64,000 nt of DNA from a virus. The stretch spans positions 45,660 to 109,659 of the IMG/VR virus record IMGVR_UViG_3300023179_000039; one strand, given 5' to 3'. The notes under the pieces were generated by a model, which saw nothing but the letters and a program-made list of their open reading frames with translations, did not search any database and was not told the origin of the DNA. The position numbers were made by a program, and so were the translations under genes. Below, piece by piece: positions 9,619 through 63,414 of this stretch (position 1 is its first letter; each line of letters starts with the position of its first letter).

Positions 9619-12396
9619 ATGTTATATATGCCTAAAAAACAAGAAAGTCAATTTTATTTAGGAAATCAAAATTTACCCACAACAGATGCTGTATTTGATT
9701 ATGAAGCACATCCAGAATGGGTACAAGATATAGCCAGATGTAGAAAAAATATATTATATTTTGCTGAGAACTTCTTCTATATTACCAATCTAGATGAAGG
9801 TAAGATGAAAATTAAACTTCATACTTATCAAAAGCGTATTTTAAGAAGTTTACGAGATAATAGATTTGTATGTTTATTAGCAAGTCGTCAAATTGGTAAA
9901 GCACTTGCTTTAGACACCCCAATACCTACTCCAGCTGGATGGACTACTATGGGTGAATTAAAAGACGGGGACATTGTATTTGGTTTAGATGGTAAAAGAT
10001 GCAAGGTTGCAAAAGCTCATGATATTTTATTAAATAGAAATTGTTATGAAGTGTTGTTTGATAATGGTGAAAAAATAATTGCTGACGAAGATCATTTGTG
10101 GTTAACACAAACTAGAGCCGAAAGACATAAAGAGATACAAGGTAGTAAAAAGACAACTAAAGAAATTTTCAATACTTTATTAACTAAATCTAAAACAAGA
10201 CAAGAACCAAATCATAGAATTCCGGTTTGTTTGAATGGTATAGAAACGAGTAGAAATTTACTACCAATAGATCCTTATGTTCTAGGATTTTGGTTGGGCG
10301 ATGGAGCTTCTGAAGGCGGTACAATAACTGTTGGTAAAAGAGATTTAGATAATGTTATCTCTATTCTTAAAAATAATCAAATGCAGTTTAACAATTTAAT
10401 TGTACATAAATACAATAAAAATGCTTTTACAGTGCGCATTACAACCAGCAAAAACGTAAAGACTGAAAGTTTAAGCACATTATTAAAGGAAAATAATTTA
10501 GTTTTTAACAAACATATACCGCAAGAGTATATGTTAAGTAGCAGAACACAAAGATTATCTTTACTGCAGGGGTTAATAGATAGTGACGGCTATATAACAA
10601 AACATGGTATAGCTCAATTTTATAATACAAATTTAAATTTAGTAAAGCAGGTAAGAGAACTTATTGAAAGTTTAGGATACAAAGTAACTTACAAAGAATT
10701 TATTCCAAAACTCAGAGGTGTTGAATGCAGTAAAGTAGGCACATTGACTTTTACTCCTTATGAAGAGGTATGTCTTTTAGACTTTAAAAAATCTAGACTA
10801 AAGAAAATAACTAAAAAAGAAAACGTTTCTAAATTAAGAGCTCAATGGCATTACATTAAATCTATAACCCCTGTAAAATCTGTGCCCGTTAGATGTATAA
10901 CTGTAGATAATGAAACAGGGACATTTTTATGTGGAAAACAGTTTATTCCAACAAGTAATACTACATTAATGACAATATATGCTTTGTGGATAGCCTGTTT
11001 TTTTGAAGACCAACGTACTCTCATTGTCGCTAATAAAGAGCAAACAGCAATTAATATTTTTAAGAGAGTTCGTTTAGCTTATGAAAAACTACCAAACTAT
11101 CTTAAACCAGGAACCGTAGAATATGGGAAAACATCAATGTCTTTGGGAAACGGGTCTAGTATTGGTATTTCGACGACAAGTAGTGATGCAGGCCGAGGCG
11201 ATAGCTGTAATGTTTTAATTTTGGATGAGTTAGCATTTATTGACAACCATCTTGTTGAGCAATTCTGGAGTTCAGTATACCCAATTATTTCATCGTCCAA
11301 AAAATCTAAAATATTTGTTGCATCAACGCCAAACGGAACCGGTAATCTTTTTCATGAATTATATTCTGGGGCAATAGAGGGTAAAAATGATTGGCATGCT
11401 GAAAAAGTTGATTGGTGGGAGTTTCCCGGGCGTGATGATGTCTGGAAAGAAAAAACAATTAAAACTTTAGGCAGTAGAGAAGTTTTTGATCAAGAATTTG
11501 GTAATGTATTTTTACAAGCCGGAGAAAGTGCCATCGATGAAAAACTTTTTGAAGAAATGAAAACTGAATGTATTGAACCTAATTTTATTTTTGAAGAAGG
11601 AAAATATTTGATGTGGGAAGAGCCCTCACAGGATAAAATTTATGTCGTCGGAGTCGACATAAGCGAAGGCGTAGGAGAAGCTGCAAGTGTTGTTCAAGTT
11701 TTAGATATTACGGATTTGAGAGAAATAAAACAAGTAGCAGTTTATCATGACCGTACAATTAGCCCTTACAATTTTACAACTAAGTTACACGAAATCTTAA
11801 AGCACTGGGGATCACCTCTTGCCATGATAGAAAGAAATAACTGCGGTGCACAGGTTGTCGATCAACTTAAAAATACTATGGGATATGAAAATATAGTTTC
11901 ATATGGAATTAAATCTGGACCGGTTTCGTTTAATAAAATTGGCGTACAAGCCCATACCAACACAAAATATAAAGGTGTAATGAATATGCGGTATTGGATG
12001 TCAGAATTAAAAGTATTAAAAATTAGAGATTTAAAAACGTTAAACGAATTAAAAGGGTTTGTTCGCTATCCTAACGGCACATGGGCGGCTAAACAAGGTT
12101 CAGATAGCTGGGATGATAGAGTAATGAGTCTTATGTGGGGGCTAATGATTTTAGAAAACGGGTTAGTGGAAAAATATTTTGAAATTGTAGAGTTTGATAA
12201 TAATAAAAAACCATTAAAATTAAAATCTTTAGATTATGGAATTAAGTATTTTCTAAACCCTGCATCAATTTATAACAATGAAAAAAATGGCTTAGAAGGG
12301 TTACCACCTTTACCTATAGTAATACAACAACAAGATAATAATGATTTTAATGAAATAGCTGATTTAGAATCACAAGGCTACCGCCGAATTCAATAA
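9619..12396 (+). CDS. gp17: Terminase large subunit (T4 gp17-like) containing an intein; start may be 9628
   Basis: Walker A SRQIGK/TT split by the intein, LILDELAF Walker B, ASTPNG, VGVDISEGVG nuclease motif, DDRVM. Confidence 0.95.
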   Translation: MLYMPKKQESQFYLGNQNLPTTDAVFDYEAHPEWVQDIARCRKNILYFAENFFYITNLDEGKMKIKLHTYQKRILRSLRDNRFVCLLASRQIGKALALDTPIPTPAGWTTMGELKDGDIVFGLDGKRCKVAKAHDILLNRNCYEVLFDNGEKIIADEDHLWLTQTRAERHKEIQGSKKTTKEIFNTLLTKSKTRQEPNHRIPVCLNGIETSRNLLPIDPYVLGFWLGDGASEGGTITVGKRDLDNVISILKNNQMQFNNLIVHKYNKNAFTVRITTSKNVKTESLSTLLKENNLVFNKHIPQEYMLSSRTQRLSLLQGLIDSDGYITKHGIAQFYNTNLNLVKQVRELIESLGYKVTYKEFIPKLRGVECSKVGTLTFTPYEEVCLLDFKKSRLKKITKKENVSKLRAQWHYIKSITPVKSVPVRCITVDNETGTFLCGKQFIPTSNTTLMTIYALWIACFFEDQRTLIVANKEQTAINIFKRVRLAYEKLPNYLKPGTVEYGKTSMSLGNGSSIGISTTSSDAGRGDSCNVLILDELAFIDNHLVEQFWSSVYPIISSSKKSKIFVASTPNGTGNLFHELYSGAIEGKNDWHAEKVDWWEFPGRDDVWKEKTIKTLGSREVFDQEFGNVFLQAGESAIDEKLFEEMKTECIEPNFIFEEGKYLMWEEPSQDKIYVVGVDISEGVGEAASVVQVLDITDLREIKQVAVYHDRTISPYNFTTKLHEILKHWGSPLAMIERNNCGAQVVDQLKNTMGYENIVSYGIKSGPVSFNKIGVQAHTNTKYKGVMNMRYWMSELKVLKIRDLKTLNELKGFVRYPNGTWAAKQGSDSWDDRVMSLMWGLMILENGLVEKYFEIVEFDNNKKPLKLKSLDYGIKYFLNPASIYNNEKNGLEGLPPLPIVIQQQDNNDFNEIADLESQGYRRIQ
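9901..10959 (+). mobile_element. Intein (353 aa) with LAGLIDADG homing endonuclease, class 3 type
   Basis: Starts ALALDTPIPTPAGW; block B ADEDHLW; LGFWLGDG and LQGLIDSDG; block F VRCITV; ends IPTSN before +1 Thr. Confidence 0.92.
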
Positions 12397-20445: not shown

Positions 20446-20457
20446 TAAGTAAACATT

Positions 20458-21741: not shown

Positions 21742-21776
21742 CATAGTTAAATTAATATATTACAATAAGTAATATT

Positions 21777-22142
21777 ATGGACGGCGAATTTCAGAGCCAA
21801 ATTGCTGGATTACCCGGTTTAAAGAGTTTTAGATATGAAAATATTTTTAAACTATACAAAACCGACAACGATCAGTATTATTATAACCTATTACAATCAG
21901 TTTTTTTGCCGGAAAAAATAAGCGAAAATTACATTTACTATCAATTAATTACCACTAAAATGCCTTGGACGATTGTAAGCTTTAATGCTTATAAAACCAT
22001 AGAATTGTGGTGGCTTATTTGTTTAACTAATAAGATTTATAATCCCGTTATTTTTCCCGAAGAAAATACATTAGTAAAAATTATTAAACCGCCCTTTGTT
22101 TCTGCAGTTATTAATGAAATAAGCAATTCTATAAAGAAATAA
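21777..22142 (+). CDS. Baseplate wedge protein (gp53-like, LysM-type)
   Basis: SFNAYKTIELWWLICLTNKIYNP motif. Confidence 0.75.
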   Translation: MDGEFQSQIAGLPGLKSFRYENIFKLYKTDNDQYYYNLLQSVFLPEKISENYIYYQLITTKMPWTIVSFNAYKTIELWWLICLTNKIYNPVIFPEENTLVKIIKPPFVSAVINEISNSIKK

Positions 22143-22143
22143 T

Positions 22144-26132: not shown

Positions 26133-26595
26133 CATCAATAATTTCAGAATCTATTATTTTTGCACTGTTATTTGCACTGTCTATTAACATTTTAAACACT
26201 TGTTCTCTCGTAGCGAGTAATTTGGTAGCATTATCTGCTTGTTTAAGTTCTTTTCTAGATTCAATATCCATTTCTTTTGCTTTAATAACAGTTTGATTAC
26301 GCTTATCCGTTACAATAATCTTGTTTAATGTTTCTATAGCTGTGGCAGTAGCAGCTATTAACTCCGATAAAGAGCTTACGTCCTTATTTTCAGGTGCTGA
26401 AGATATGTAATCCTTTACATTTGACATTACTTCTATGCTTTCTTCTACAAGTCTACCAGCTTTTTCAATAACAAATTTTTCCATATTGTCTTTTGTTAGT
26501 GGTTCAGGTTGTTTCTTTACTTTTTCAGCTTCTTTGTTAGCTGTTTGAAGTTGTTCTAGTAAATCACCTACCATTTCGTTAAGTTCTTCACTCAT
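26125..26595 (-). CDS. Putative terminase small subunit (gp16-like)
   Basis: Helical protein, SAP..DV..LSELI......ETLNK...ATRE; TATAAATA-N5-ATG supports start at 26595 rather than 26613. Confidence 0.45.
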   Translation of the reverse strand: MSEELNEMVGDLLEQLQTANKEAEKVKKQPEPLTKDNMEKFVIEKAGRLVEESIEVMSNVKDYISSAPENKDVSSLSELIAATATAIETLNKIIVTDKRNQTVIKAKEMDIESRKELKQADNATKLLATREQVFKMLIDSANNSAKIIDSEIIDVN

Positions 26596-26600
26596 AATAA

Positions 26601-26608
26601 TATTTATA
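26601..26608 (-). promoter_or_regulatory. T4-like late promoter
   Basis: Full TATAAATA-N5-ATG. Confidence 0.7.
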
Positions 26609-26613
26609 CCCAA

Positions 26614-26641
26614 TTGATATTTTACAATTGTATTATATAAT
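26614..26641 (+). promoter_or_regulatory. Sigma70-type promoter (dut-gp44)
   Basis: TTGATA-N16-TATAAT-N6-ATG. Confidence 0.8.
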
Positions 26642-26647
26642 AGGTTT

Positions 26648-27106
26648 ATGTATACTAATATTGATCCTAATTTACAGTTTTTGCCTGTTTTAAAGTTTGA
26701 AAAGACGCATGATTTAGCTAAACTACCTACTAAAAACCATGAATCAGATACCGGTTATGATGTCTATTCAGTAGAAGACAAAATCATACCTGCAAAAAGT
26801 AGTAATGTTGTCGGTGTAGGGCTAAAATTTGCGTTTATACCTGAAGGGTATTGGGTAAAAGTTGAAAGCCGTAGTGGTTTAGGGTTTAAGCATAGTATTT
26901 TAGCTCATCCTGGTATTATAGACTGCGGATACCGCGGTGATGCCGGTGTAAAACTATACAATTTGTCAGATAAAGACTACGAAATTAAAGCAGGTGATAG
27001 AATTGCACAATTTGTAATATATCTTAACATTTCTACGCCTTTAGAATGGGGTAAAGCAGAAGAATCTGAGAGAGGTGAAAAAGGATTCGGCTCTTCAGGT
27101 AAATAA
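26648..27106 (+). CDS. dut: Trimeric dUTPase
   Basis: GYD, RSGLG, GIIDCGYRG, GDRIAQ, RGEKGFGSSG motifs. Confidence 0.97.
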   Translation: MYTNIDPNLQFLPVLKFEKTHDLAKLPTKNHESDTGYDVYSVEDKIIPAKSSNVVGVGLKFAFIPEGYWVKVESRSGLGFKHSILAHPGIIDCGYRGDAGVKLYNLSDKDYEIKAGDRIAQFVIYLNISTPLEWGKAEESERGEKGFGSSGK

Positions 27107-28041
27107 TGAATTATAATTTTAATAATCTATGGGTTGAAAAGTATAGACCCAGTACTCTAGAAGATTTTATTATTACAAACGATAATAAAAACATTATTGA
27201 ATCTTTTAAAGTAAAGAAAGAGATACCAAATCTATTGTTTTTAGGTACTCCTGGGCTAGGTAAGACTACTCTTGCTAAGATTATAGTAAATGATATTTTA
27301 CAGAGCCAATATCTTTATATAAATGCCAGCGATGAAAACGGAATTGATACAATAAGAACAAAAGTCACAAGCTTTGCACAGACAAAAAGTCTAGACGGTA
27401 CAGTAAAGGTTATTATTTTAGATGAAACAGACGGGCTATCGATAGACGCGCAGCGTGCATTAAGAAATACCATGGAAGAGTTTGCTAAAATAACTCGGTT
27501 TATACTTACAGCTAATTACAAATACAGGGTTATACCAGCTTTGCAGAGTAGATGTCAGAGTATAGATTTAACTCCGCCTCTAGAAGGTGTAGTTAAAAGG
27601 TGCGGTCACATTTTAAAAGCAGAAAAAGTTCAAATTTCAAATGAAGTAAAGCCTCTATTACTAAATTTTATTAGATCTAATTATCCAGATCTTAGAAAAT
27701 GCATTAATGAGCTACAAAAATATTCATCTACAGGTACATTATTGTTAAAAGGCGATAATAATGAAATATTAAAGCTTATTTTTGATGAAATGACTAAAAA
27801 CAACACACTTCAGCTACGAAAAGCATTAATAGAAAACGAAAACCAATTTAATTCCGATTATGTTGTACTGCTTAGAAATCTTTTTAATTATGTAGACACT
27901 TTAGATATTAACTCTAACCTCAAGAAGCAGTATTTATTGACCATTTCTGAATATTTGTACAGAAGTAGTTTTGTAGTTGATCAAGAAATTAATTGTTATT
28001 CTTGCTTTTTAGGTCTTAGCAATATTAAGGCAAGTATTTAG
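27106..28041 (+). CDS. gp44: Clamp loader AAA+ subunit (gp44/RFC-like)
   Basis: WVEKYRP, GTPGLGKTT, INASDE, IILDETD, ALQSRC, DLRK.IN. Confidence 0.95.
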   Translation: MNYNFNNLWVEKYRPSTLEDFIITNDNKNIIESFKVKKEIPNLLFLGTPGLGKTTLAKIIVNDILQSQYLYINASDENGIDTIRTKVTSFAQTKSLDGTVKVIILDETDGLSIDAQRALRNTMEEFAKITRFILTANYKYRVIPALQSRCQSIDLTPPLEGVVKRCGHILKAEKVQISNEVKPLLLNFIRSNYPDLRKCINELQKYSSTGTLLLKGDNNEILKLIFDEMTKNNTLQLRKALIENENQFNSDYVVLLRNLFNYVDTLDINSNLKKQYLLTISEYLYRSSFVVDQEINCYSCFLGLSNIKASI

Positions 28042-28624
28042 CTGTATAGCTAGCGGGATCAGCTTGACCTACCGCCGGAGACGAAGGTATCTTTACATTG
28101 GTATTATTTAACTCTCTATCACCTTTTACTAATTTACCACCCACATCAGAAAGCTTTGTTTGTGCAGTAGAATAAAAAGGTACTTCCTGATTTTCATCTT
28201 TTAATTTCTTTGGCTTAATGTTTACTTTCTTAGAGGGGTCATCTTTCTTAAACACTTCAGGTACTTCAGGTAAATTAGGATAAGAACTCTTAGGTTCTAC
28301 AAGTCTTGAAGGTATAGTTACGAAATCCATATATCTTCCAGGTGCTATTTCAGATGTAATATCGAGATTTACCTCATCACTATTATAATCTGTATTACCT
28401 GCACCACTTACATTAGGTCTTACATTTTTAATCGCAGAAATTCTAAGATTTAACCCACTATTAATCATGCTTTTAATTTTTTCAATAGTATTAGTGCCTT
28501 TATCTTTAAACCAAGGGTCTCTCAATGCACCTTCTTTAAAAACAACAACGTCGCCAGCTAGAAATCCACCTAATGTATATCTTTGCATTGCAGATTCGTA
28601 TAGCTTGACAAAATTACGCTTCAT
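28025..28624 (-). CDS. Hypothetical late protein
   Basis: TAAATA-N6-ATG; N-terminus MKRNFVKLYES. Confidence 0.7.
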   Translation of the reverse strand: MKRNFVKLYESAMQRYTLGGFLAGDVVVFKEGALRDPWFKDKGTNTIEKIKSMINSGLNLRISAIKNVRPNVSGAGNTDYNSDEVNLDITSEIAPGRYMDFVTIPSRLVEPKSSYPNLPEVPEVFKKDDPSKKVNIKPKKLKDENQEVPFYSTAQTKLSDVGGKLVKGDRELNNTNVKIPSSPAVGQADPASYTAKYLP

Positions 28625-28630
28625 TTAAAT

Positions 28631-28688
28631 TATTTATTGTTTGGAGCTCATTAAAATCATTTTTAAAACACGAAATTTAACATAAATA
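28631..28688. promoter_or_regulatory. Divergent late promoters
   Basis: TAAATA on minus (28631-28636, N6) and plus (28683-28688, N5). Confidence 0.7.
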
Positions 28689-28693
28689 TATAT

Positions 28694-29176
28694 GTGGCAA
28701 CGATAAAAGTACAATCTCTTGCAGAGCCTAAGAAAGCATCAAGTAATTTTACATATACAGACCTTATGCTTGATCTTAAAGTAGATTATACGCAGAATAA
28801 TGAATTTTTAAAGAATAAAGAAATTAAAGACCTTAAGATTGATTATGACTATGCAGCAGTTCGTAATTCTATCTTTAATTTGTTTAATACTATACCCGGA
28901 CAACGAATTTTAAATCCTTATTATGGGCTAAATTTACAAAAATACTTATTTTATGTTGCCGACGAAATAAGAGCTCGTCTTATTGGCAATGAAATATTAA
29001 ACGGAATATCTACATTTGAACCTAGAATAAAAATTAATAATATTGACGTTGCTGTTGACACATTAAATCAACAATATGTAATTACTTTAATAGTTTCTAT
29101 AGTTTCTATCGACCCTACCACTGGTTTTAAATTCGTAGGATTATTAAGTAATTCAGGATTTAACTTTGTAAAATAA
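28694..29176 (+). CDS. gp25: Baseplate wedge protein (gp25-like)
   Basis: AVRNSIFNLFNTIPGQRILNP.YG.NL..YLF...FEPRI. Confidence 0.9.
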   Translation: MATIKVQSLAEPKKASSNFTYTDLMLDLKVDYTQNNEFLKNKEIKDLKIDYDYAAVRNSIFNLFNTIPGQRILNPYYGLNLQKYLFYVADEIRARLIGNEILNGISTFEPRIKINNIDVAVDTLNQQYVITLIVSIVSIDPTTGFKFVGLLSNSGFNFVK

Positions 29177-29177
29177 T

Positions 29178-31031
29178 ATGGCAACATTTAACGATTTTAA
29201 TTTATCAAAAGACGGGTATGTAGCGTTCGATGCATTGAGTTTAAAAAGCTTAATTACCACCAGACTTAATACAAATAATGTTTTTACAGATCAGAATTTT
29301 GAAGGTAGTAATATTTCTTCCATTATTGATATTATTGCTTATGCATATCATGTTTTAATTTTTTATCTTAATAGATCTGCAGCAGAAAGTACTTTTACTA
29401 CAGCTGAGCTTTACGAAAATATCAATAAAATAGTAAAAATTTTAAATTATAATCCTATCGGCTATCAAACATCTATTTTATCATTTTTAGCAACAGCTCA
29501 ATCATCTCTACCTGCATCTACTTACACTATTCCTAGATATTCCTACTTTACTATCAACGGTTCGCAGTTTTCATTTAATCAAGACATTACTTTCTCTAAA
29601 AACACTAATGCAACAGAAACTTTAACAAATTTACAGGAAAGCAATCTCTTATATCAAGGTGCCTATACAGAATATCCTACATATGTTGCTACTGGAGAGC
29701 CTTTTGAAGTCGTTACCATGACTCTTGTAGATACCAATAATCAGAATATTTTAATCGATCATTTTAATATGGATGTATACGTGAAAGACAATACTGTTGT
29801 CACACCAGTTTGGGAAAAATGGGAACCATCGCAGTCATTGTTCTTAGAAAGATCAAATTCTAAAGTATATGAAGTAAGACTTAATGAAAATGGAAGATAT
29901 GAATATAAATTTGGTAATAATGTTACAGGTAAAAAACTTAATGCAGGTGATGAAGTAGCTATTTATTATTTAAAATCTAGTGGTAAAAAAGGAGAGGTAG
30001 GTACAGGTCTTCTTAACAATAGTAAGCTCTTCTTCTACAGTACACAAAGATTTACGCAGATTCAAAATGATACTACACCCTCAAATATAACATTAATTAA
30101 CTCTGCACAAGCTAGTAAGATCAATTTCAATAATATAGATGCATCCACTCCGTTTGTAGACAGAGAATCCGTTTCTAGTATTAAATTAAACTCTCTTAAT
30201 ACATTTAGAAGTCAGTATAGATTAATTACCGGTGAAGATTTTACCAATTATGTGCTTAAAAATTATAGCAATATTATTTCTTCTTCAGTAGCCGTTAACA
30301 ACTGGGATTATATTACTGGACATTTAAAGTATTATTTTGATCTAGGTGTAGATAAGCCTAATTATGAAAGCAGAGTACTCTTTAACCAAGTCAAATTTGC
30401 AGATTCGTGTAACTTTAATAACGTTTATGTTTATGCTGTACCTAAACTAGAAAAACTTACATCCCTTACAACTAGAACCAATTACTTAAATTCTGCTCAA
30501 AAGCAATTAGTGTTAAACGACTTACAAAAAGTCAAACTTACTACAGCTGAAATTATAATAAACGACCCTGTTTATGTTGCTATTGATATTGGCGTTAGAT
30601 ATCCCGGTGAACTTTTAACCCCTTCAATTGCTGATAATACATTTTTAGAAATTGAAAGAGAAGTTACTGCCAAACGCAACCCTGAAGCTATTAAGCAGCA
30701 AATTTCTCAAATATTTTCTGATTATTTTTCAACTCTTAAAGATAATTTAGGATTGCAAATAAGCCTTACAGAAATTACAAATAAAATATTAGCCATTGAC
30801 GGGGTAAAAGACATTAGAACAAAGAGAACAGAAGGAGATCAAACTATTACTGTACCTGGCATTAGCTTATTAATCTATAATCCTGTATATCCAGAGACAG
30901 ACATTAAAATTACTACACAGGACGAAAAATTACCATACTTTAAATATCCATTTTTAAATAATCCTCTTGATTTTCAAGCAAAAATCAATGTCGTAACACC
31001 ATCTATACAGACATTACAACGTGAGTTTTAA
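29178..31031 (+). CDS. gp6: Baseplate wedge protein (gp6-like)
   Basis: FTDQNFEGSNIS.IIDIIAY; FGNNVTGKK; QYRLITGEDF. Confidence 0.88.
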   Translation: MATFNDFNLSKDGYVAFDALSLKSLITTRLNTNNVFTDQNFEGSNISSIIDIIAYAYHVLIFYLNRSAAESTFTTAELYENINKIVKILNYNPIGYQTSILSFLATAQSSLPASTYTIPRYSYFTINGSQFSFNQDITFSKNTNATETLTNLQESNLLYQGAYTEYPTYVATGEPFEVVTMTLVDTNNQNILIDHFNMDVYVKDNTVVTPVWEKWEPSQSLFLERSNSKVYEVRLNENGRYEYKFGNNVTGKKLNAGDEVAIYYLKSSGKKGEVGTGLLNNSKLFFYSTQRFTQIQNDTTPSNITLINSAQASKINFNNIDASTPFVDRESVSSIKLNSLNTFRSQYRLITGEDFTNYVLKNYSNIISSSVAVNNWDYITGHLKYYFDLGVDKPNYESRVLFNQVKFADSCNFNNVYVYAVPKLEKLTSLTTRTNYLNSAQKQLVLNDLQKVKLTTAEIIINDPVYVAIDIGVRYPGELLTPSIADNTFLEIEREVTAKRNPEAIKQQISQIFSDYFSTLKDNLGLQISLTEITNKILAIDGVKDIRTKRTEGDQTITVPGISLLIYNPVYPETDIKITTQDEKLPYFKYPFLNNPLDFQAKINVVTPSIQTLQREF

Positions 31032-31033
31032 TA

Positions 31034-34000
31034 ATGGCTAATTCAGTCAATTATACTTACGTATATTTTAATATAGTAGGCTTTACCGGGACAAATACTC
31101 TATCCACATTTACACTTTCTAACACCCCTTTAACATTTTATCCTGATTTTACTACATCACCTACGTTAACATCAACCGATAATATTTCTAACAAAATTAT
31201 TAGGTGGGATTTTGGTGATGGTAATTTTTCTAACTCTCTAACTGCAGTTCATCATTATAAATGGCCGGGTAAATATAATGTTAGGTTGACTATTTACGAC
31301 AAGCAAGGTAATAGTTTTGATAGTTCATTTAGACCTGTAGTTAATGTTTATGATTATGTTTATGATCAATTACAGTTTCAAGATTATTTTAAATTTATTT
31401 ATGATGTACCTGCTAGCAAAATACAAGACCCAATTATTATTCAAAGACAAAATAGCTGGCAATCATACAATGCATTAAGTGCTACAGGCTACACTACCTT
31501 TTTATATGCTTCTGGTGCAAACGGCCAATATCAAAACATTTTTAATTTTTATGATGATAAGTGGTCGCATTTAAGAGCATTGAGTAGATTTTATGAAAAG
31601 GTTAAAATAGGAACATCTTACGAGTTTAAATCCGTCGATCGCGTTACAACATCAAATGAAGAAATATATGTAAAAATACAAAACAAACAACTCGTTCAAT
31701 GTAAACAAACTGATTCCGGTGCCGTATTAGCAGGTACAAAAGGATCTGCTAGCTTTTATTATGTGGATGATGTAGCTAAAAATTATACGTCACGTGAACC
31801 ACCTATCTTCTTATTTGCCACTCTCGATGCATCTAAGATGCAAGACGAGTATACAATTAACCATGATACTTTTAATTATATAAACTACCCTCCTTACAGT
31901 TTTCAAAATTTAAAACCTGCAGTTCTACCTATTATTAAAGTAAGACATAACGATGCAGTAAAGCTATCAGTTACTACTACAGGTATTGATGGTGAAGGCA
32001 ATCTTTCCGCAACAAATTTTAATATACCCGAGATAAGCTGGCAAAAAACAGAAATACCTTTTGTAATAAGATTAAAAGATAAGGATTATTATACCACTAA
32101 AACATATCCTCCTCTTTCTTCCTCTACAATACATACAAATATAAGCTATCTTACCGCTTACGATGTAAATTTTGGTATAATATCTAAAACAGATACCGGA
32201 TTTAAAGAAGTTACCGGTGTTAGTTTTTATGAAGACTTTACTGATGATGCACCACAAAGCATAGGAGCATTTTATAAAGGCTATTTTGTTGCACCTGAAG
32301 TAACATATAACTGTATATTAACTGCATCGGTAAATATTGTTGATCCATTAAACTTTCCTAAAGATTCATTAATAGGTTGGATAGCTATACCACAATATAA
32401 TAAACTAATAAGATTTTTTAGACAGCAAATTTATAGTAACTGTCCAGGCTATCTAGTAGTTAATATTTCTGCATCACAACAGTTTTTTAATTCTTATGAA
32501 AACAGAAATGTTTACGCCATACAAGTAGCGCCCTCTGGCAATGGACCTGGTCGTGATTATGAAACTTGGTTTGCTGACGGTACGCGCAATACTATTTTTA
32601 AATTCGACGCTTACGGTAACCAGATACTTAATATTGACCTTACTAACGCCCCGGTATTGACTGCTGTCGGGGAAATGGGATATTTAAACTTATGCTCTCC
32701 AGTTTTAAGTAGTGCAGGACCCGGAAGTATTACTCTTGATAGATACAACGACGTCTGGGTTGCGTTGTTTGATTCCGTTTCTTGTATAAAAATAGATTCA
32801 GTTGGCGGCTATATTAAATCTACAGCAGTACCTCCCTATCAAAATTTAGTTTACTCCTTAAGTTCTGATTATAATATACCAGAATTACAGGGATTTGCTG
32901 GAGAAAATATACTTTTACCTTCTTCAGTAGATACAGATAGAGATAATAATTTATGGGTTTCATATACACACCCTGTTTCAAACTTTATTATAAAATATAA
33001 TAGTGTGGGTGAACATTTACTAACTGTTCCTATGCCACCCTTACATTCACCGGTAGAAATATGTATTGATAGAAATAGATTTGTATGGGTAACAACATAT
33101 AATCTAGATACATTTGCGCTAGATTTGACTGCTAAAAATGATTATCTTTATAAGTTTAATACTGACGGTACTATTGTGCCGGGATATCCTTTAGACGGGT
33201 TTAGGTTAATTGGAAATATTACTGTAGACGGTAATCAAGATGCTTGGGTAGCGCACGATAAGGATACTATAACAAAAATTGATGGTAAATTTAATACCAA
33301 AACAGACTTTATTGCAGGTTCAGGTAATTCTACAAATTATATAGAAAGTATCGGAGGCATAGCTGTTGATACGAGTAATTATTTGTGGGTAATAAACAAT
33401 TTTAATAATAGATTATATTTTATCGATACGCTTAGACCTCCTGTTTCTTCTCTGGAAAATCTTGATTATGTAGACATTTCATACCCAGTAACTAGTATTG
33501 AAAATAATCGTCCCGAATTTGAAGATATACAAATACAAGCTTATGGTGATTGGCTAGGTAGTAGATGGATCAACAAACATATGTTAGAAGAAACAACTAG
33601 CCGTACAATTACAGGTGAATCAACATTGTTTAATGTCTATCCCCTTTCAGGTGTTTATAACTTGTTTAAAGTTAACGAAGATTTTGATGCCGAAAGCTTT
33701 TACAAATCATTAATCTTTACAGAAAACTTACAGGATAAGAAAGTATTTTTTGAAGACTTTTTAGGCACTATTGTCGGTAAAAAGAACGCAATGCCATACG
33801 AGTTAGGTAAAACGGTTTACGAAAAAATTGCTAATTATGTAAGTAATGTTTCAGATATAGATACGGTAAACCTAGATCAGCTTCTTTCGTTTTGTGATGA
33901 ACTATCAATTCAATTTGAACAATACAACTACCCGTTTCCTCCTCAGCTCTTAAGATTAGTAAACATACTTTCAATTAAACATAAAAAATTATGGGGCGAG

Positions 34001-50583: not shown

Positions 50584-52200
50584 ATGAATATATTACAAGA
50601 AACATTGAAAGAAGGGTTTATATATGATCGCTATTTAGGCGAATCGCTTACTCTGCCTTACGATATAAATCAAATTAAAATACAAGCTAATGAAACTGTA
50701 TCAGCAGATGTTTTAAATTTAAAACTAGAACATCTTTATGATAATTTTATCTATATTTATAAAAATACGTTACTAGCGTCTAATGTAATCCCCGTTTCAT
50801 CCACTGCAATTGCGGGTGTTACAGCATCATCTACTAATTTTACTTGGTATAGAGGGTTAAGTTCTAGAGATTTTATATCTCTTTCTAACAATTTAACTTT
50901 AGGTGGTTTAGATAGTACTGAAACCTCATTTTTAATAAAAAATAGGGATATAGATAGATATTCGCTACTCACTTCATCAGGACCATCCATTAATGTGTTT
51001 AATTTTGACTATAATGCATCTTATATAAAGAAAGTACACACTCAAACACAGATTGATCAAAATTACGGCGTACCGTTTGCAAATATTTGTTCATTTGACT
51101 TGTATGAAAACAATCTGTATGTTTTAGACTGCGAATTAAATAGATTAGTAAAATATGATGTAAGCGGACTTACTGAATTAAACACAGTTACAAATAACAG
51201 GCTTTCTTATGTTGACTCGATAGGCAATTTTGGTGATTTTAATTCTAAAACAGATTTTAATAACCCCGAAGGCCTTACTATTGCAGGTGAATATATTTTT
51301 GTTTTAGATTCAGGAAATTCCTGTATTAAAAAATATGATTTAAATTTAAATTGGGTTTACACATATAGACTTTATAAAGACTTTCTAAAAGATTACCCTA
51401 TAGATATAGCATCTGACTTTAACGGCAGTATCTATGTTTTAACGCAAAGCAATAAAATTTTTATTTACAATAATGAAATTTCTGATAAAAAAATTATAGA
51501 TTTATCTACATTAAAAGAAAGTGATGAATATTTTAAAAGATTAGTTTTTTCTCAAACAGATAATAATGTTTTTTATGTTTATTCTAATAAAAATATATAT
51601 AAAAAATTAGTTAATAAGCCATACGACACTATTGGCAAATATTTGTTGTACTTATTTAAGTATGACATACCTGACGAAGAAATAAATACGTTTTGTTCTG
51701 CTCCATCACAAGATTTTACAAGCGATGTAAATATTATGTTTTCTGCTTCTGGTAATGTAGGTAAATTTGGTTATTTTCTAGATAATTTAAATTTATTTGA
51801 TGTACTAGCTGTAAGAAATTTTGACATCTATGATTTTAATGAAATAAAATTTAACAGTAATGAATACCTGCAAAATTGGGTCTTTAATAAAAATATTTCA
51901 AAGCTCTTATTAAATCATATGAGATTAAGAGATCAAATAATAGGCAAATTTATTGCTTCTCGAGACTATTTAAATAATATCTTTTTTAAAGGTACAAGAT
52001 ATCTTTTACCCGATGAATTAGACGCTATATATTTTTCACAAGATATAACTAATTTTATAGGCGGTAACGAGATAATTTCAAATAGTATAGTTAATAGGCC
52101 TTTTGAAAAAATTTACGATATTCAAGTAAAATTACTTAAAGTTTTAAGTTCTGAAATTATTAAAACACCCTTTAATACTAACCCTATATTTTTAAACTAA
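50584..52200 (+). CDS. NHL/beta-propeller repeat structural protein
   Basis: FNNPEGLTI...IFVLDSGNSCIKKYD; LYVLD..LNRLVKYD. Confidence 0.7.
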   Translation: MNILQETLKEGFIYDRYLGESLTLPYDINQIKIQANETVSADVLNLKLEHLYDNFIYIYKNTLLASNVIPVSSTAIAGVTASSTNFTWYRGLSSRDFISLSNNLTLGGLDSTETSFLIKNRDIDRYSLLTSSGPSINVFNFDYNASYIKKVHTQTQIDQNYGVPFANICSFDLYENNLYVLDCELNRLVKYDVSGLTELNTVTNNRLSYVDSIGNFGDFNSKTDFNNPEGLTIAGEYIFVLDSGNSCIKKYDLNLNWVYTYRLYKDFLKDYPIDIASDFNGSIYVLTQSNKIFIYNNEISDKKIIDLSTLKESDEYFKRLVFSQTDNNVFYVYSNKNIYKKLVNKPYDTIGKYLLYLFKYDIPDEEINTFCSAPSQDFTSDVNIMFSASGNVGKFGYFLDNLNLFDVLAVRNFDIYDFNEIKFNSNEYLQNWVFNKNISKLLLNHMRLRDQIIGKFIASRDYLNNIFFKGTRYLLPDELDAIYFSQDITNFIGGNEIISNSIVNRPFEKIYDIQVKLLKVLSSEIIKTPFNTNPIFLN

Positions 52201-55879: not shown

Positions 55880-58800
55880 ATGGCAGTTAATGCGCGTTTT
55901 CATAATAAATGGCATAGAAGAAACCATCATTCTTCTCCATCAATAGGTTATCCGGATTCAGGCTCTGATCCTATTGCCTCTAAAAATGAACCGTTTCAAG
56001 GCGAGTTTGTTTTAAATGGTTATTTAAGTGCTCACGGTGATGCCTATATTGACGGCGATACTTCTATACAAGGTAGCTTGTCTGTTTACGGTGATTTATC
56101 ATATTTTGACACGTATGTTTCGGTAACGAGTTCATTAAGTGTAGTTAATCATGGCCCAGGTCCTGCTGTTGTTGTAGAGCAATATAATGATGAATCTATT
56201 GCAAGGTTTATTGATCCTGATGCGGTAGGTGGACCTAAAATTGCTTTAGGTATAGAAAATGATGGTTATGTAGTGTCTAACGGGTCAGTACCCGCTACAA
56301 AATTTGACAAGCAGTCACAGACACAAGAAAAAATGCAGCTTACTGTTAATGGTAACATTTACGCCTCTAGAGGCGTAATTTATGAAGCACCAATGGCCAA
56401 TACAATTTATGTTAGTACTACCGGCTCTGATACAAACAGTGGATTAAACCCTTCACAAAAAGTAAAAACTATTAAGAAAGCTGCAAAAATTGCTTTTGAT
56501 ACCTACGGGGTTAATAAATGCACAATTCAAGTTGAGGCAGGCGATTACACTGAAATAAATCCAATTTATATTCCTGCAGGAACTTCTATAATTGGTGAAG
56601 CATTTTTACGTAGAACAAATATTCGTCCCTATCACAGACAGTTAGATATTTTTTGGCTTAATAATGGTTGCTATATGTGGGGGTTTACTTTTAGAGACCA
56701 TCTTGAACCTAGCGCTGCTACAGCATTTCCAAATTTACTTTCTGGTACCCCTGCATACGAGGTAGCATTTAATACACCAGGGTATGAAATTGATGTTACT
56801 AGACCAGGAGGGCCGTTTGGGTTTCCTATAGTTTCAAAGCCTTATATTACTACCAGTCCCTATACCCAGGGCATGAGCTCAATTAATCGTTATCTTGCTG
56901 TACCTATTCAACCAAGCATTTATATAAGTGGAATGACTCCCGGTACACAGCAGTATGATTATACAAAAACAACTGGCGGCCATACTTCTGCAGCAATACT
57001 AAGCTGTTTTGATATTATTACAGATATTATAAAATATGGTCCGACAAGTGCTCCTTCTGTTGCAACATACCCTGTGCCCTACGGTGCAACCGATGCAAAA
57101 GACTTAATAGATTTAAACAAATTAGCAATTCAAGATGCTGTTGTTACATATGTTAATAGAAAATATCCAACATTTGTTTACAATCAAAGTCTATGCTATC
57201 GTGATGTAGGGTTAATTTTAGATTGTATAACATACGATATTACAAATGGTACAACATTAAGCTCAGTTGGCGCGGGTAAATATTATTTTATAGGTAATCA
57301 AAGCTTAATATCTGGACAAGAAACACAAACAATAGATGCGTTAGAATATGCAAATTATCTAATTAATTATGTAGTAACTAACTCTGCTGTTCCTATTTAC
57401 GAACAGCAATTTGATCCTTCTGCTACTTCTGCATATAATGAATCTGCTAATATAACAAATTGTGTTAATTATATTAATTCAAAAATTAGAACAGGTATAT
57501 CTCCATCAGTTGTTAATTGGTCAGTAAATGTTACTTCTGCTTCCGAAGCAAGCAATTTATTAAACACTAATAAACCTTACATTGGTAAAACTGTAATTAA
57601 TTATGTCGATAAAAACTTCCCCGGGTTTGCTTACAATAGATATTATTGTGAAAGAGATACCGGATTAATAATCGACGCAATAATACATGATATTACTAAC
57701 GGTAATAATCTAAGTTCAATTGATGCTGGTAATGCTTACTTTAATAATGGTAAAAGTATTATTACCGGTCAAGAAGTGCCTACTATTGCAGCTTTAAACT
57801 ATTTAAACTTTTTAGCTCAAAATATTATTACCAATACAATTGCAATAACCTCACAGGCATTTAATCCATATCTTTCTTCTGGTAATTACGCTATAGATGA
57901 TGTTAATAGATCTTTTGATGTCATTACCAGAATGATTATTACAAAAGAAATACCTACCGTAATTTATGACGCCGAACAATTTTATAATTATAGCTTAACA
58001 GATGGCGCTAAAACCTCCGCTTTTATTACAGATACGTACGATATAGTTACAAGTATAATAAGCGGGGGGCCAGGAGCTGCGCCTTCAGTAGCACCAAGAA
58101 CTGCACCTGCAGGAGCAATCGACGCAAAACTATTAATGTCAGGTAACCGTACTTATATTCAAGAACAAACAATAAAATACATCAATACTAGATATCCTGA
58201 TTTAGTTTATAATATTGACAAATGCTATCGTGATACTGGTTATATGGTTGATGCTGTTTATAGCGACTTAACTTACAACACAAATTATAGTGCAGTAAAT
58301 ACCGGGCTATTTTATTGGGATGGTAATCAAAGCCGTATTAAAGGTCAACAACTTCAAACTATTCAGTCAATAAAATATATAGATTCTCTACTACAAAATG
58401 TAGTAAACAATGAATTAATAGATTCCAAGCAAAATGCCGTATGGCTTCTCTCAGCTAATAAAGTCTTTATTCAAAAGGAAGTCATACAATACATGGGTAA
58501 AGCCTATCCTACGTTTGTTTATAATAAAGAAAAATGCGAAAGAGATGTAGGGTTTATTATTGATGCTGTTATATACGACGTCACACACAGTACAACAGAG
58601 AGCGCAGTTAATGCCGGTAATTTTTATCTTTATGGCGCAATAAATGGTCAAGAACTACAAACAGTAGCTGCAATTAATTATGCAAAATATTTGTGCAAAT
58701 ACATCATAGGTAATAATCCTGTAGAAAATATTGGTGCAGGGTGTGGTATTAGGGTTGACGGAGAGCTAGCATTAGGGTTTTTAAGAAGTTTTGTTACTGA

Positions 58801-59635
58801 CTCCTTTACGCAATTTAATCAAGGCGGTAAAGGTATTCATGTAATTAATTGCGGATATGCACAGCTTGTAAGTACGTTTACTATTTGTACCACAGAGGGT
58901 GTAATGACTGAATCTGGCGGTCAATGCAGTATCAGTACTTCAAATTGTTCTTTTGGCTTGTCAGGCTTAGTTGCAACCGGTAAATCTAAATTCCCTGTCC
59001 TTACAGGATACCAATATCAAACTACACCCTTAGCTGAAAACTATATAGTTGTACAAGATGTAACGCCAAGACCGTTATCAGCATTTGTTGCTGCCCTTCA
59101 ATCCGGTTATGAATTAAAGGGTATTCCAGTAGACTCACCTTACAACGGCTTAATAGTAAAAGTAGAGGACGATCCTGCCAGCGATTATGATGTATTATTA
59201 AATCCTAAAGGGTTGACAAAATATCATGGTATTAAATCAGTTACAGCTTTAAATGAGCCTTACCCTCCATTTTCTTATAAATTAATACTTGAGAAAAATA
59301 TTCAAGCACCATTAACTGCTGCTCAAATTGAGCCAAAATACGTTGAATTCTATCTAAGAAGTCAAATTGCATCGAGCTCTCATGCATTTGAATATATAGG
59401 TACCGGTATTGAGCTTGAAAAAGCAGTACCTGCTTTAGGAGGCAAGCCAGTAAACGCAAATGAAGCTGTATATTCAAACAATGGAATTGTTTATTATTCA
59501 AGCACTAATGAAAGAGGCGACTTTAAGGTAGGTGGTGGGTTTACTATTAAACAAGAGAAAGGAACAGTAGAAGGTGTCGACTTTAATAAGTCAATTCTTG
59601 CATTAGTTACACCTTTAATACTAAGTCTAGATTAA
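55880..59635 (+). CDS. Tail appendage protein, beta-helix-like, with four inserted CxRD helical repeats
   Basis: IYVSTTGSD.NSG...KTIKKA..GDY.E; SFVTDSFTQFNQGG.G....GYAQLVS; SSSHAFEYIG.G; repeats at C439, C590, C782, C886. Confidence 0.75.
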   Translation: MAVNARFHNKWHRRNHHSSPSIGYPDSGSDPIASKNEPFQGEFVLNGYLSAHGDAYIDGDTSIQGSLSVYGDLSYFDTYVSVTSSLSVVNHGPGPAVVVEQYNDESIARFIDPDAVGGPKIALGIENDGYVVSNGSVPATKFDKQSQTQEKMQLTVNGNIYASRGVIYEAPMANTIYVSTTGSDTNSGLNPSQKVKTIKKAAKIAFDTYGVNKCTIQVEAGDYTEINPIYIPAGTSIIGEAFLRRTNIRPYHRQLDIFWLNNGCYMWGFTFRDHLEPSAATAFPNLLSGTPAYEVAFNTPGYEIDVTRPGGPFGFPIVSKPYITTSPYTQGMSSINRYLAVPIQPSIYISGMTPGTQQYDYTKTTGGHTSAAILSCFDIITDIIKYGPTSAPSVATYPVPYGATDAKDLIDLNKLAIQDAVVTYVNRKYPTFVYNQSLCYRDVGLILDCITYDITNGTTLSSVGAGKYYFIGNQSLISGQETQTIDALEYANYLINYVVTNSAVPIYEQQFDPSATSAYNESANITNCVNYINSKIRTGISPSVVNWSVNVTSASEASNLLNTNKPYIGKTVINYVDKNFPGFAYNRYYCERDTGLIIDAIIHDITNGNNLSSIDAGNAYFNNGKSIITGQEVPTIAALNYLNFLAQNIITNTIAITSQAFNPYLSSGNYAIDDVNRSFDVITRMIITKEIPTVIYDAEQFYNYSLTDGAKTSAFITDTYDIVTSIISGGPGAAPSVAPRTAPAGAIDAKLLMSGNRTYIQEQTIKYINTRYPDLVYNIDKCYRDTGYMVDAVYSDLTYNTNYSAVNTGLFYWDGNQSRIKGQQLQTIQSIKYIDSLLQNVVNNELIDSKQNAVWLLSANKVFIQKEVIQYMGKAYPTFVYNKEKCERDVGFIIDAVIYDVTHSTTESAVNAGNFYLYGAINGQELQTVAAINYAKYLCKYIIGNNPVENIGAGCGIRVDGELALGFLRSFVTDSFTQFNQGGKGIHVINCGYAQLVSTFTICTTEGVMTESGGQCSISTSNCSFGLSGLVATGKSKFPVLTGYQYQTTPLAENYIVVQDVTPRPLSAFVAALQSGYELKGIPVDSPYNGLIVKVEDDPASDYDVLLNPKGLTKYHGIKSVTALNEPYPPFSYKLILEKNIQAPLTAAQIEPKYVEFYLRSQIASSSHAFEYIGTGIELEKAVPALGGKPVNANEAVYSNNGIVYYSSTNERGDFKVGGGFTIKQEKGTVEGVDFNKSILALVTPLILSLD

Positions 59636-60900: not shown

Positions 60901-63414
60901 ATGGGGTTAAACATACTTACACAAGATCATAAATTTACAGGAGCAGTTTATATTAATAATCTGTCCTTAAGTGCTATTAATAGTGATTCCTTAATAGTAA
61001 ATTCAGATTCATTGTCAGCTAACAGCTTGAAAACATCTTTTAATACAGGAGTTGCAACAAATAATTATAGTTTTGCAGAAGGGTATAATACTTTAGCATC
61101 TGGAGAGAGTAGCCATGCTGAAGGTGATTCTACCATTGCCTCTGGTGATCAAAGCCATGCAAGTGGTATCAGTACGGTAGCTTATGGAGCAGGGTCATAT
61201 ACCGAAGGTTATGCTACTAGTGCAACTGACTACTACGCACATGCTGAAGGTGATACCACTATTGCTTCTTATTATGCTACTCATGCAGAAGGAGGTAATA
61301 CTAAAGCAATTTATACATATGCTCATGCTGAAGGCCATGATTCGTTAGCATCCGGTCTAGTTTCACACGCAGAAGGCGAAGATACAGTTGCCTCTGGCAA
61401 TTATTCACATGCTGAAGGTAGATATACATCTACAGGGTATAGAGTGCCTTTTAATACCTACACATATACAACAAAAACATTTACCTTTACATCAACTACA
61501 AGTGCTAATTTTGCCTTTTTAAATGATCCCGGATATGAAAATTTCGTTTTAAAAACGCTTGCTAATGGTTCATTAAAGTTTATAACTGTTTCGTATAGAG
61601 ACGCCGTAGACGGTTATATTATAATACAGGACGATGTTATCGGGGTAGATATTGCTCCGGGATCAGGAGGTTGGATAGTAGATAAGAGTGGTAATACAGC
61701 TCACGCTGAAGGTAACTCTACGCAAGCCTATGGAAATAGCTCACATGCTGAGGGAGAAGGTACAATAGCTTCTGGAAATAGAGCACATGCCGAAGGATTA
61801 TCTACACAAGCAACTGGCAATCAAGCACATGCTGAAGGCGATACTACTATTTCTTCAGGTAGAGCAAGTCATGCAGAAGGAAGAGATAATACTGCTTCCG
61901 GTGCTTCTTCTCACGCCGAAGGCCGTAATAATATAGCTTCAGGTGAGAGCTCTCACGTAGAAGGTAAACAATCCAACGCATTTGGAATTGCATCTCATGC
62001 AGCAGGCTATCGTGCTCAAGCAAAACAAAATTATACATATGTATGGACGGATGGTAATTTAGGTACAGCAACACAAGATGTTTCTTCAACTATAACTGGT
62101 CAATTCTTAGTTTCTGCATCTGGTGGAATGTTTATACCAGGTAATTTAGGTATTGGAACAAGCGCAAATGATCAAGCACTCACCGTTGTCGGGACAATTT
62201 CTACAAATAATAATATGTCTAGTAAAGAATGGGTATCTACTTATACCACAGTACAGGGTAATAGCGGTACCTGGGGAACAGTTCCTTCTAGTTATAGTTC
62301 AATTTCTATATCAGATAATAACTTCTCTACTTTGCAGCTTTCTGCAGTATCGGTAACTGTAAATTCCGGAACACCTGGCTCGCCTACAACTACAAATTAT
62401 ACTGCAGGTGCAACAACGTGGGTATGCCCGGCTGGTGTTAATAGTGTAACTATTGAAGGGTGGGGAGGTGGAGGAGCAGGAGCCGGCGCTCAAAGAACTG
62501 GTGCTAGCGGTGTATGTTATGGTGGTGGTGGTGCTGGTGGTGGCTATGCTAAATCCGTTATAGCTGTTACCCCGGGCGCAACCTACTATATAAACGTAGG
62601 TTCCGGTGGTACTGCTACAAATCCACCTGTTAATGGAACAGTTAATTCTGGAGGCGATACTTGGTTTAATAGCGTAAATTCTTCTGCAGGCGCACAAATT
62701 ATTGCCCGAGGCGGTGTTGGTGCACCTGATGTAGTTACTGCAAGTGGTACCGTAGGTACAGCAGGTATTGCACTTAATACCAATGTAGGTAATGTTATAA
62801 CATATACCGGGGGCAGTGGTTCAATAGGTGTAGCGTTAAACGGGTTTTCAGGCGGTGGAGGTGGTTGTGCAGGATCTACAGGTAATGGTAATACCCCGAC
62901 TAATGGTACAGGTCTTGGCGGTACAGCAACTGCTAGTAACGGTGGCCCTGGTGGTAATGGTAATTTTGCAGCAGGAGCTGGAAACTCCGGGCCCGGTGCA
63001 GCGCCTGTTTCAAATTATGGCGGTGGTGGTGGAGGCGCAAGAGCATCTGCTGCAGCACAAATAGGTGGAAACGGTGCGCCGGGGTATATGACACTTACTT
63101 ATACAGTACAACCTCTCACTAAAACAGTAAGTAATTTAATTCCTGCAGGTAGCTTAGGTTATGGTGTTGTAGTTAATGTAATTGCAAAAGGATCTGCTAC
63201 TGCAACTACATTTGATATATATGATTCAACCGGTTTTTATTGGGGTAAAAGCATAAGTACGGCTACTGGAACTAAGACAAACTCAACAAATTATAATTTA
63301 TCTAGCATACCGTTTTATACTGCTTCTCCTACCGTCACGCTTTCTTCTAATAATACGTTCAACAATACAGACTTTAGAGTAACATCATATTTTCAGAATG
63401 TAATTAGCTTTTAA
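60901..63414 (+). CDS. Tail fibre/adhesin with 14-aa (S/A)HAEG YadA-head-like repeats and Gly-rich domain
   Basis: Two blocks of HAEG..T.ASG repeats; W..PAGV.SV..E.WGGGG Gly-rich domain. Confidence 0.8.
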   Translation: MGLNILTQDHKFTGAVYINNLSLSAINSDSLIVNSDSLSANSLKTSFNTGVATNNYSFAEGYNTLASGESSHAEGDSTIASGDQSHASGISTVAYGAGSYTEGYATSATDYYAHAEGDTTIASYYATHAEGGNTKAIYTYAHAEGHDSLASGLVSHAEGEDTVASGNYSHAEGRYTSTGYRVPFNTYTYTTKTFTFTSTTSANFAFLNDPGYENFVLKTLANGSLKFITVSYRDAVDGYIIIQDDVIGVDIAPGSGGWIVDKSGNTAHAEGNSTQAYGNSSHAEGEGTIASGNRAHAEGLSTQATGNQAHAEGDTTISSGRASHAEGRDNTASGASSHAEGRNNIASGESSHVEGKQSNAFGIASHAAGYRAQAKQNYTYVWTDGNLGTATQDVSSTITGQFLVSASGGMFIPGNLGIGTSANDQALTVVGTISTNNNMSSKEWVSTYTTVQGNSGTWGTVPSSYSSISISDNNFSTLQLSAVSVTVNSGTPGSPTTTNYTAGATTWVCPAGVNSVTIEGWGGGGAGAGAQRTGASGVCYGGGGAGGGYAKSVIAVTPGATYYINVGSGGTATNPPVNGTVNSGGDTWFNSVNSSAGAQIIARGGVGAPDVVTASGTVGTAGIALNTNVGNVITYTGGSGSIGVALNGFSGGGGGCAGSTGNGNTPTNGTGLGGTATASNGGPGGNGNFAAGAGNSGPGAAPVSNYGGGGGGARASAAAQIGGNGAPGYMTLTYTVQPLTKTVSNLIPAGSLGYGVVVNVIAKGSATATTFDIYDSTGFYWGKSISTATGTKTNSTNYNLSSIPFYTASPTVTLSSNNTFNNTDFRVTSYFQNVISF

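Follow-up and report, generated by a model that had tools for sequence, protein, structure and literature searches.

Phycobiliproteins (PBPs) are known as the antenna pigments of cyanobacteria and algae, and in their canonical subunits the X and Y helices, together with Asp13 and Arg93, mediate formation of the alpha-beta monomer. Here, we describe a 1251-aa protein (P0001) of an uncultured T4-like phage, encoded in a 64,000-nucleotide stretch of DNA (the window) that makes up the 3' portion of an IMG/VR virus record of 109,659 bp (IMGVR_UViG_3300023179_000039; estimated completeness, 51%). P0001 is a tail-fiber-type virion protein in which four globin-fold domains are inserted between N- and C-terminal fiber parts. 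These domains are distant but real PBP homologues that have lost the X/Y helices and Arg93 and have kept Pro64, Tyr74, Cys84, Arg86, Asp87, and Gly102. Literature searches turned up no account of PBP-like domains in phage fibers or structural proteins.

Two other described systems bear on this locus. Bilin-biosynthesis-associated globins (BBAGs), PBP paralogues of nonphotosynthetic bacteria, were described in 2023; BBAG-1 and BBAG-3 carry a CXRD motif and attach bilin without a lyase (Rockwell et al. 2023, PMC10151467). Like the phage domains, BBAGs are PBP relatives that occur outside photosynthesis, and they are tied to genes for heme oxygenase (HO) and ferredoxin-dependent bilin reductase (FDBR), as are three jumbo-phage relatives of P0001. 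However, compared by description only, BBAGs are free-standing cellular globins encoded in gene clusters next to pre-PcyA, whereas the phage domains are fused arrays embedded in structural proteins of 1 to 6 thousand amino acids (kaa). Cyanomyoviruses have giant proteins annotated as "tail fiber" or "short tail fiber" (S-PM2 p091, T4-like GC 734 protein, Syn1_032, SRSM4_214) that contain the same repeat family and have flanks in common with P0001. Compared to these proteins, P0001 is much smaller (four units) and belongs to a divergent phage, whose large terminase reaches only ~34% identity with any counterpart from a cultured phage (best match, Synechococcus phage B3/B23); psbA and cpeT were not seen in the half-genome record that carries it.

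Kinship with PBPs was apparent at the sequence level. Searches of all PDB sequences with profiles built from 4, 106, and 122 repeats retrieved chains that were nearly all phycocyanins, phycoerythrocyanins, or their relatives (hmmsearch; best E of 0.002), and PBPs made up 28 of the 29 PDB sequence matches of profile A3. When 106 repeats were scanned singly against Pfam, 14 matched the PBP family PF00502, and every other family was matched by at most one repeat. Taking the PF00502 gathering cut-off (22.2 bits) as the operational threshold, homologues P0062, P0067, P0073, and P0120 exceeded it (25.9 to 35.4 bits); this sequence evidence places P0001 in the PF00502 superfamily at a distance, via its family and not by Pfam's rule. 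Profile-profile comparison with CpcA and CpcB, taken from the cpcA and cpcB genes of Acaryochloris marina plasmid pREB3, aligned A3 with PBP residues 39 to 142 over 90 columns (hhalign; probability 91%, E of 1 × 10−6), while the extended unit scored 80% (E of 1.5 × 10−5). The repeat Cys fell on the K-C-x-R-D of CpcA (Cys84) in the PDB profile alignments, and the residue mapping placed P28, Y32, C37, R39, D40, and G55 of the repeat on PBP Pro64, Tyr74, Cys84, Arg86, Asp87, and Gly102, respectively.

P0001 contains exactly four C-x-R-D motifs, at C439 (CYRD), C590 (CERD), C782 (CYRD), and C886 (CERD), and two FD[IV]I helices, at residues 377 and 679. The motifs lie in units of ~104 aa (residues 403 to 506, 554 to 657, 746 to 849, and 850 to 953) that share 41 to 47% pairwise identity and 25 invariant columns; their repeat nature is therefore far beyond chance. 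An AlphaFold2 (AF2) model of all four units (601 residues; predicted local distance difference test [pLDDT] of 84) had five helices plus a small hairpin in each core. A single unit, residues 363 to 545 folded with 122 homologous units, was modeled with a pLDDT of 87 and a predicted template modeling score (pTM) of 0.82. In this model, the N-terminal spacer helix, which carries the FD motif, was packed confidently on the core that follows it (pLDDT ~95), while the C-terminal spacer helix was not confidently placed (~60), indicating that each spacer helix goes with the following core.

Structure searches agreed with the sequence comparisons. With the single-unit model, all of the top 50 Foldseek matches were PBPs (E of 0.02 to 0.3; probability of 0.8 to 1.0; template modeling [TM] score of 0.34 to 0.48), and PBPs ranked above heme globins in both Foldseek and VIA. 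These values should be read with care, as the Z of the structure matches can be reached in helical models through arrangement alone and each statistic is modest singly. Foldseek with the 601-residue four-unit model returned noise, mostly G protein-coupled receptors and transporters, at E of 0.16 or weaker. Because sequence and structure agree on both family and register, we consider it well supported, with little doubt remaining, that the phage repeats are globin-fold homologues of bilin-binding globins.

The initial annotation of this locus, made from the DNA letters without database searches, had proposed four helical repeats with a PBP-like globin fold and a CxRD motif in the register of Cys84/Arg86/Asp87. 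Translation and alignment confirmed the four repeats and their cysteines; the profile comparisons and the single-unit AF2 and Foldseek analysis bore out the fold and the register. The helix upstream of the Cys, also likened to a PBP helix, indeed aligns with PBP residues 39 to 64, and the SCFDII and RSFDVI helices are where they had been placed. Two details were not borne out. The "FD" helix, described as parallel to allophycocyanin, occupies model residues 5 to 24, outside the PBP-aligned ranges, which start at 30 to 38; and the start given for the feature, 57085, is one base off frame (correct frame start, 57086).

Despite this kinship, the phage domain is not a canonical alpha or beta PBP subunit. 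PBPs (CpcA/CpcB, ApcA/B, CpeA/B; PF00502) and the ApcE bilin-binding domain, which matched the repeats best in both sequence and structure, share with them a globin-like order of helices (A-B-E-F'-(F)-G), the CxRD on helix E, and the Pro64, Tyr74, and Gly102 positions. In contrast, the phage repeats have no counterpart of PBP residues 1 to 38, which make up the X/Y helical hairpin (the alignment begins at PBP residue 39), and at the position of PBP Arg93 they carry Asp46 (Asp in 81%). The phage domain also has a short hairpin at the place of helix F and the extra N-terminal spacer helix on its core. Finally, PBPs are free, disc-forming subunits of ~165 aa, whereas the phage domains are tandem arrays inside virion fibers, with a pigment that is only inferred.

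We then considered how the putative bilin site is conserved. In the repeats of 120 homologues, the motif residues were nearly invariant (C, 96%; R, 97%; D, 99%), as were Gly42 (92%), Asp51 (99%), Tyr67 (~100%), Thr82 (96%), Asn11 (91%), and Tyr32 (94%). Among 1034 unique repeats, 996 had the Cys, one per domain, and 38 did not; the Cys is conserved across homologues, contrary to an outcome that the initial annotation had named as fatal to its proposal. Repeats without Cys had also lost Arg39 (21/38 versus 8/996 with Cys; P = 3 × 10−27), Asp40 (12/38 versus 0/996; P = 9 × 10−19), Tyr67 (9/38 versus 1/996; P = 4 × 10−13), and Thr82 (17/38 versus 59/996; P = 8 × 10−11) far more often, whereas losses of Asp51 (0/38 versus 6/996; P = 1.0) and Asn11 (5/38 versus 65/996; P = 0.17) did not differ significantly; these P values overstate the case because related repeats are not independent, but the direction is clear. 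All four P0001 units keep the full Cys/Arg/Asp/Tyr67/Thr82 set. That these five residues are kept and lost jointly is the behavior expected of a maintained ligand site, and the co-kept set includes exactly the PBP bilin-contacting triad, in which Cys, Arg, and Asp form the thioether and hydrogen-bond the bilin (PMC10151467).

The repeats form a large family. Of the 778 repeat copies in the 120 homologues, 604 are full length, and 1594 members (representatives at 50% identity) were retrieved at E ≤ 1 × 10−3 from 1.84 billion representative proteins; the maximum repeat number was 36 and the maximum length 6382 aa. A query with the single protein found one related locus; an alignment query found 565. 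The dominant repeat period in 78 IMG/VR loci was ~160 aa, so the natural unit is a long spacer helix plus a 100-aa core; units 1 to 3 of P0001 follow this layout. The domain occurs almost exclusively as arrays of up to 36 copies within giant fiber proteins of 1 to 6 kaa. No convincing stand-alone single-domain form was found: 16 proteins of 100 to 345 aa are read as fragments, since nearly all lie on contigs of 1 to 2.7 kb. A relative of P0001 at 63% identity (P0008) lies on a 208-kb contig. The earlier remark that similar repeats occur in aquatic T4-like phages was too narrow in scope, as jumbo-phage records of ~330 kb that lack psbA account for many of the carriers.

In cultured phages, the repeats were compared with cpeT across 19 complete genomes. 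Both were present in 12 (S-PM2, P-HM1, P-HM2, S-SM1, P-RSM4, Syn33, Syn19, Syn1, S-SSM5, P-SSM4, Syn9, and S-RSM4), repeats without CpeT in 2 (S-ShM2 and P-SSM7), CpeT without repeats in none, and neither in 5 (P-SSM2, S-SM2, S-SSM7, P-SSP7, and HTVC008M). This co-occurrence was significant (Fisher's P = 0.0018; P = 0.018 for cyanomyoviruses alone), with the proviso that shared ancestry inflates both statistics and that a single lineage may account for the three cyanomyoviruses that lack repeats. In S-PM2, Syn1, and S-RSM4, cpeT lies 0.7 to 1.4 kb upstream, on the same strand, of the repeat-bearing giant "short tail fiber" gene, and in two of these three a 2-oxoglutarate (2OG)-Fe(II) oxygenase gene lies in between; its product might act on the fiber or the pigment. 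The order cpeT, 2OG-Fe(II) oxygenase (T4-like GC 104), giant repeat "short tail fiber" (GC 734) is found at 163952 to 177267 of S-PM2 (NC_006820) and at 19938 to 33236 of Syn1 (NC_015288). We also observed that RefSeq places 16 tRNA features, all with the locus tag S-PM2t009, inside the giant fiber coding sequence of S-PM2 (NC_006820, 168556 to 173383), which resembles an annotation clash.

The distribution of the repeats can also be set beside published adsorption phenotypes. S-PM2 needs light for adsorption, independently of host photosynthesis; in the dark, P-HM1 and P-HM2 fail to adsorb, while P-SSM2 and P-SSP7 succeed; light-sensitive receptors and/or tail fibers have been proposed as the cause (PMC6628666). 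Repeats are present in the light-requiring S-PM2, P-HM1, and P-HM2 and absent from P-SSM2 and P-SSP7, a comparison that amounts to about four independent points.

Taken together, these data make a bilin a reasonable candidate for the ligand of the repeat family, a proposition that we judge to be evenly poised; bilin binding in this particular phage is less probable than that. According to this proposal, a linear tetrapyrrole (bilin) would be linked to the Cys during fiber synthesis in the infected cell; this attachment would be autocatalytic, like that of the CXRD-bearing BBAG globins, or would require a lyase. The bilin would be supplied by the host or, in some relatives, by a phage HO-FDBR operon, and the released particle would bear the pigment on its fibers. 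The most attractive use would be light-dependent control of adsorption, with photoprotection or a purely structural cofactor as alternatives. The full form of this idea, in which the fiber domains are biliproteins serving as the phage's own photoreceptor and gating adsorption by light, is unlikely on the present evidence.

Several observations weigh against a bilin, in addition to the shared ancestry noted above for the cultured phages. P0001 itself matches PF00502 at only 12 bits (E of 0.2; residues 822 to 901), under the gathering cut-off. HO, FDBR, and CpeT were absent from the window, as the initial annotation had stated for heme oxygenase, bilin reductase, and lyase genes, and extending the search to the whole 109,659-bp record, 51% complete, also recovered none of them, nor psbA. 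CpeT was found in none of 30 large uncultured repeat-bearing records, and one 93%-complete repeat-bearing record had neither HO nor FDBR. In cultured phages FDBR does not track the repeats (P-SSM2 has FDBR without repeats; S-PM2 has repeats without FDBR). In favor of a bilin, repeats occur on 7 of 8 FDBR-bearing contigs of at least 128 kb, but these contigs are one clade with FDBR 78 to 91% identical, so that this co-occurrence, too, is inflated by ancestry.

Among 48 repeat-bearing IMG/VR records, none had psbA, indicating that the carriers are not ordinary cyanomyoviruses, and 3 had an adjacent HO-FDBR pair (psbA-less jumbo phages of 245 to 328 kb), which favors a bilin. One such pair lies at 35743 to 39264 of L089 (IMGVR_UViG_3300032307_000369), and others lie in G022 and G040, with giant CxRD-repeat proteins in the same records. 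Why phages of nonphotosynthetic hosts carry hemO and pcyA/X has been described as unknown, with BBAG-type globins mentioned only as a possibility (PMC11480375). That the repeats are, as a general rule, the acceptor of a phage-made bilin was rejected in view of the behavior of FDBR in the cultured phages and of the 93%-complete carrier. An exclusive tie between the repeats and CpeT was likewise rejected outside the cyanomyoviruses, given the 30 large uncultured carriers without CpeT; it holds solely among the cultured cyanomyoviruses.

In the main rival explanation, the repeats are a structural or adhesive module without a chromophore. Phage fiber genes would have captured an ancestral bilin-binding globin, which would now act as a spacer or adhesion domain, its conserved site binding another ligand (a metal or a molecule of the host surface) or holding the fold or the fiber subunits together. 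The arrangement of as many as 36 copies within giant fibers is typical of structural repeats, the PBP assembly residues (X/Y helices, Arg93) are gone, and many carriers, this record included, have no bilin gene, lyase, or psbA. However, the co-lost residues are exactly the PBP bilin triad and not generic core positions, and a single free Cys in each extracellular domain, 96% kept, is hard to explain structurally. The adjacency and co-occurrence of cpeT in cyanomyoviruses also argue against such a module, as does the finding that CXRD globins outside cyanobacteria do bind bilins (PMC10151467). We give this explanation appreciable but less than even weight.

It is highly unlikely that the site holds some other cofactor (heme, or a corrinoid as in globin-coupled sensors and photoglobins) or that the Cys is a redox or disulfide switch between fiber chains. 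No His or Met column is conserved in the 1034 repeats (best His column, 146/1034) to ligate a heme iron, which disfavors heme, and PBPs outranked heme globins in both structure searches and were the sole family found by sequence; a disulfide switch would leave the co-conserved Arg and Asp unexplained. The heme globin or globin-coupled sensor reading was rejected, as the proximal His is not conserved. Chance convergence, in which an unrelated helical repeat carries CxRD by accident, draws on the modesty of the single statistics (hidden Markov model search of the PDB at E of 0.002; Foldseek at E of 0.02 or weaker with TM below 0.5; P0001 under the Pfam cut-off) but is very improbable, since independent methods converge on one family and one register (hhalign E of 1 × 10−6 over 90 columns; 28/29 PDB and 50/50 Foldseek matches) and four homologues exceed Pfam's curated cut-off.

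The assignment of P0001 to the tail fibers rests on both family homology and its place in a tail gene cluster, where genes for terminase, tail sheath, tape measure, and baseplate wedge precede it (coordinates are given in Table 1). Its flanks matched tail-fiber PHROGs strongly (phrog_5342 at E of 3 × 10−77; also 17885 and 4527), and the C-terminal flank matched cyanophage fiber and "endosialidase" genes (tblastn). Searches of the ESM Atlas gave weak leads only: DUF1565 in 11% of the nearest cluster for the N-terminal flank, and Beta_helix clusters at 0.77 to 0.80 for the C-terminal flank. From these sequence matches, the N-terminal flank is possibly the start of a right-handed beta-helix. Whole P0001 had no match in the PDB (phmmer), megablast against phages gave no match, and the 51%-complete record contained no CxRD repeats outside P0001 and no second PF00502 protein.

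No lyase-like gene adjoins P0001; the neighboring genes encode one protein with a Gly-rich domain, one with an NHL repeat, and others of unknown kind. Of the two further fiber/adhesin candidates, the 538-aa protein has an NHL repeat match, and the 837-aa protein contains a Gly_rich_2 domain and weakly matches the YadA head. The gene immediately 5' of P0001 encodes 1151 aa consisting nearly entirely of Thr-Pro-x repeats (mucin-like) with a globular C terminus of ~110 aa, and its GC skew is −0.51, versus ~0 elsewhere. The large terminase (925 aa) far exceeds the length of that of T4; its residues 32 to 897 align with genes of some Escherichia coli T4-like phages, in which the annotation varies between terminase and "DnaB helicase."

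Table 1. Features of the P0001 locus (positions in the window; residue numbers are those of P0001)
Feature	Position	Strand	Basis
P0001 gene, tail-fiber-type, carrying the four domains	55880..59635	+	Open reading frame list, translation, PHROG matches, tail-gene position
PBP-like unit 1: spacer helix 366-386 (SCFDII) and globin-like core 403-499, C439-Y-R-D	56975..57376	+	AF2 single-unit model, Foldseek and VIA matches
PBP-like unit 2: spacer helix 518-538 and core 551-650, C590-E-R-D	57431..57829	+	AF2 601-residue model, repeat alignment A2
Additional helix 669-688 (RSFDVI), located between units 2 and 3	57884..57943	+	Motif position; helix 310-329 of 601-residue model
PBP-like unit 3: spacer helix 709-729 and core 746-842, C782-Y-R-D	58004..58405	+	Motif, repeat alignment, AF2 model
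PBP-like unit 4: core only, 848-943, C886-E-R-D; abuts unit 3, without own spacer helix	58421..58708	+	Motif, repeat alignment, AF2 model, weak PF00502 match
N-terminal flank ahead of insert, residues ~171-362	56390..56965	+	PHROG tail-fiber and baseplate-wedge matches, residues 173-281
C-terminal flank, residues 950-1251	58727..59632	+	phrog_5342 at 969-1229, phrog_17885 at 1155-1250; common to many phage tail-fiber proteins
Large terminase	9619..12396	+	
Further fiber/adhesin candidate	50584..52200	+	
Thr-Pro-x repeat protein, immediately 5' of P0001	52386..55841	+	
Further fiber/adhesin candidate	60901..63414	+	

PBP-like repeats in phage fibers would constitute a third large PBP branch, of 1594 representatives at 50% identity, with its bilin site under selection, and if this is true, a tetrapyrrole-binding fold is present on virus particles. 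Should the photoreceptor reading also be true, it would account for the light-dependent adsorption of S-PM2 and P-HM1/2 and would provide a purpose for phage CpeT and for the HO-FDBR (PcyX/PcyA) operons in phages of nonphotosynthetic hosts. These data make three questions testable: the identity of the light sensor in cyanophage adsorption, the substrate of phage CpeT, and the reason why phages of nonphotosynthetic hosts make bilins.

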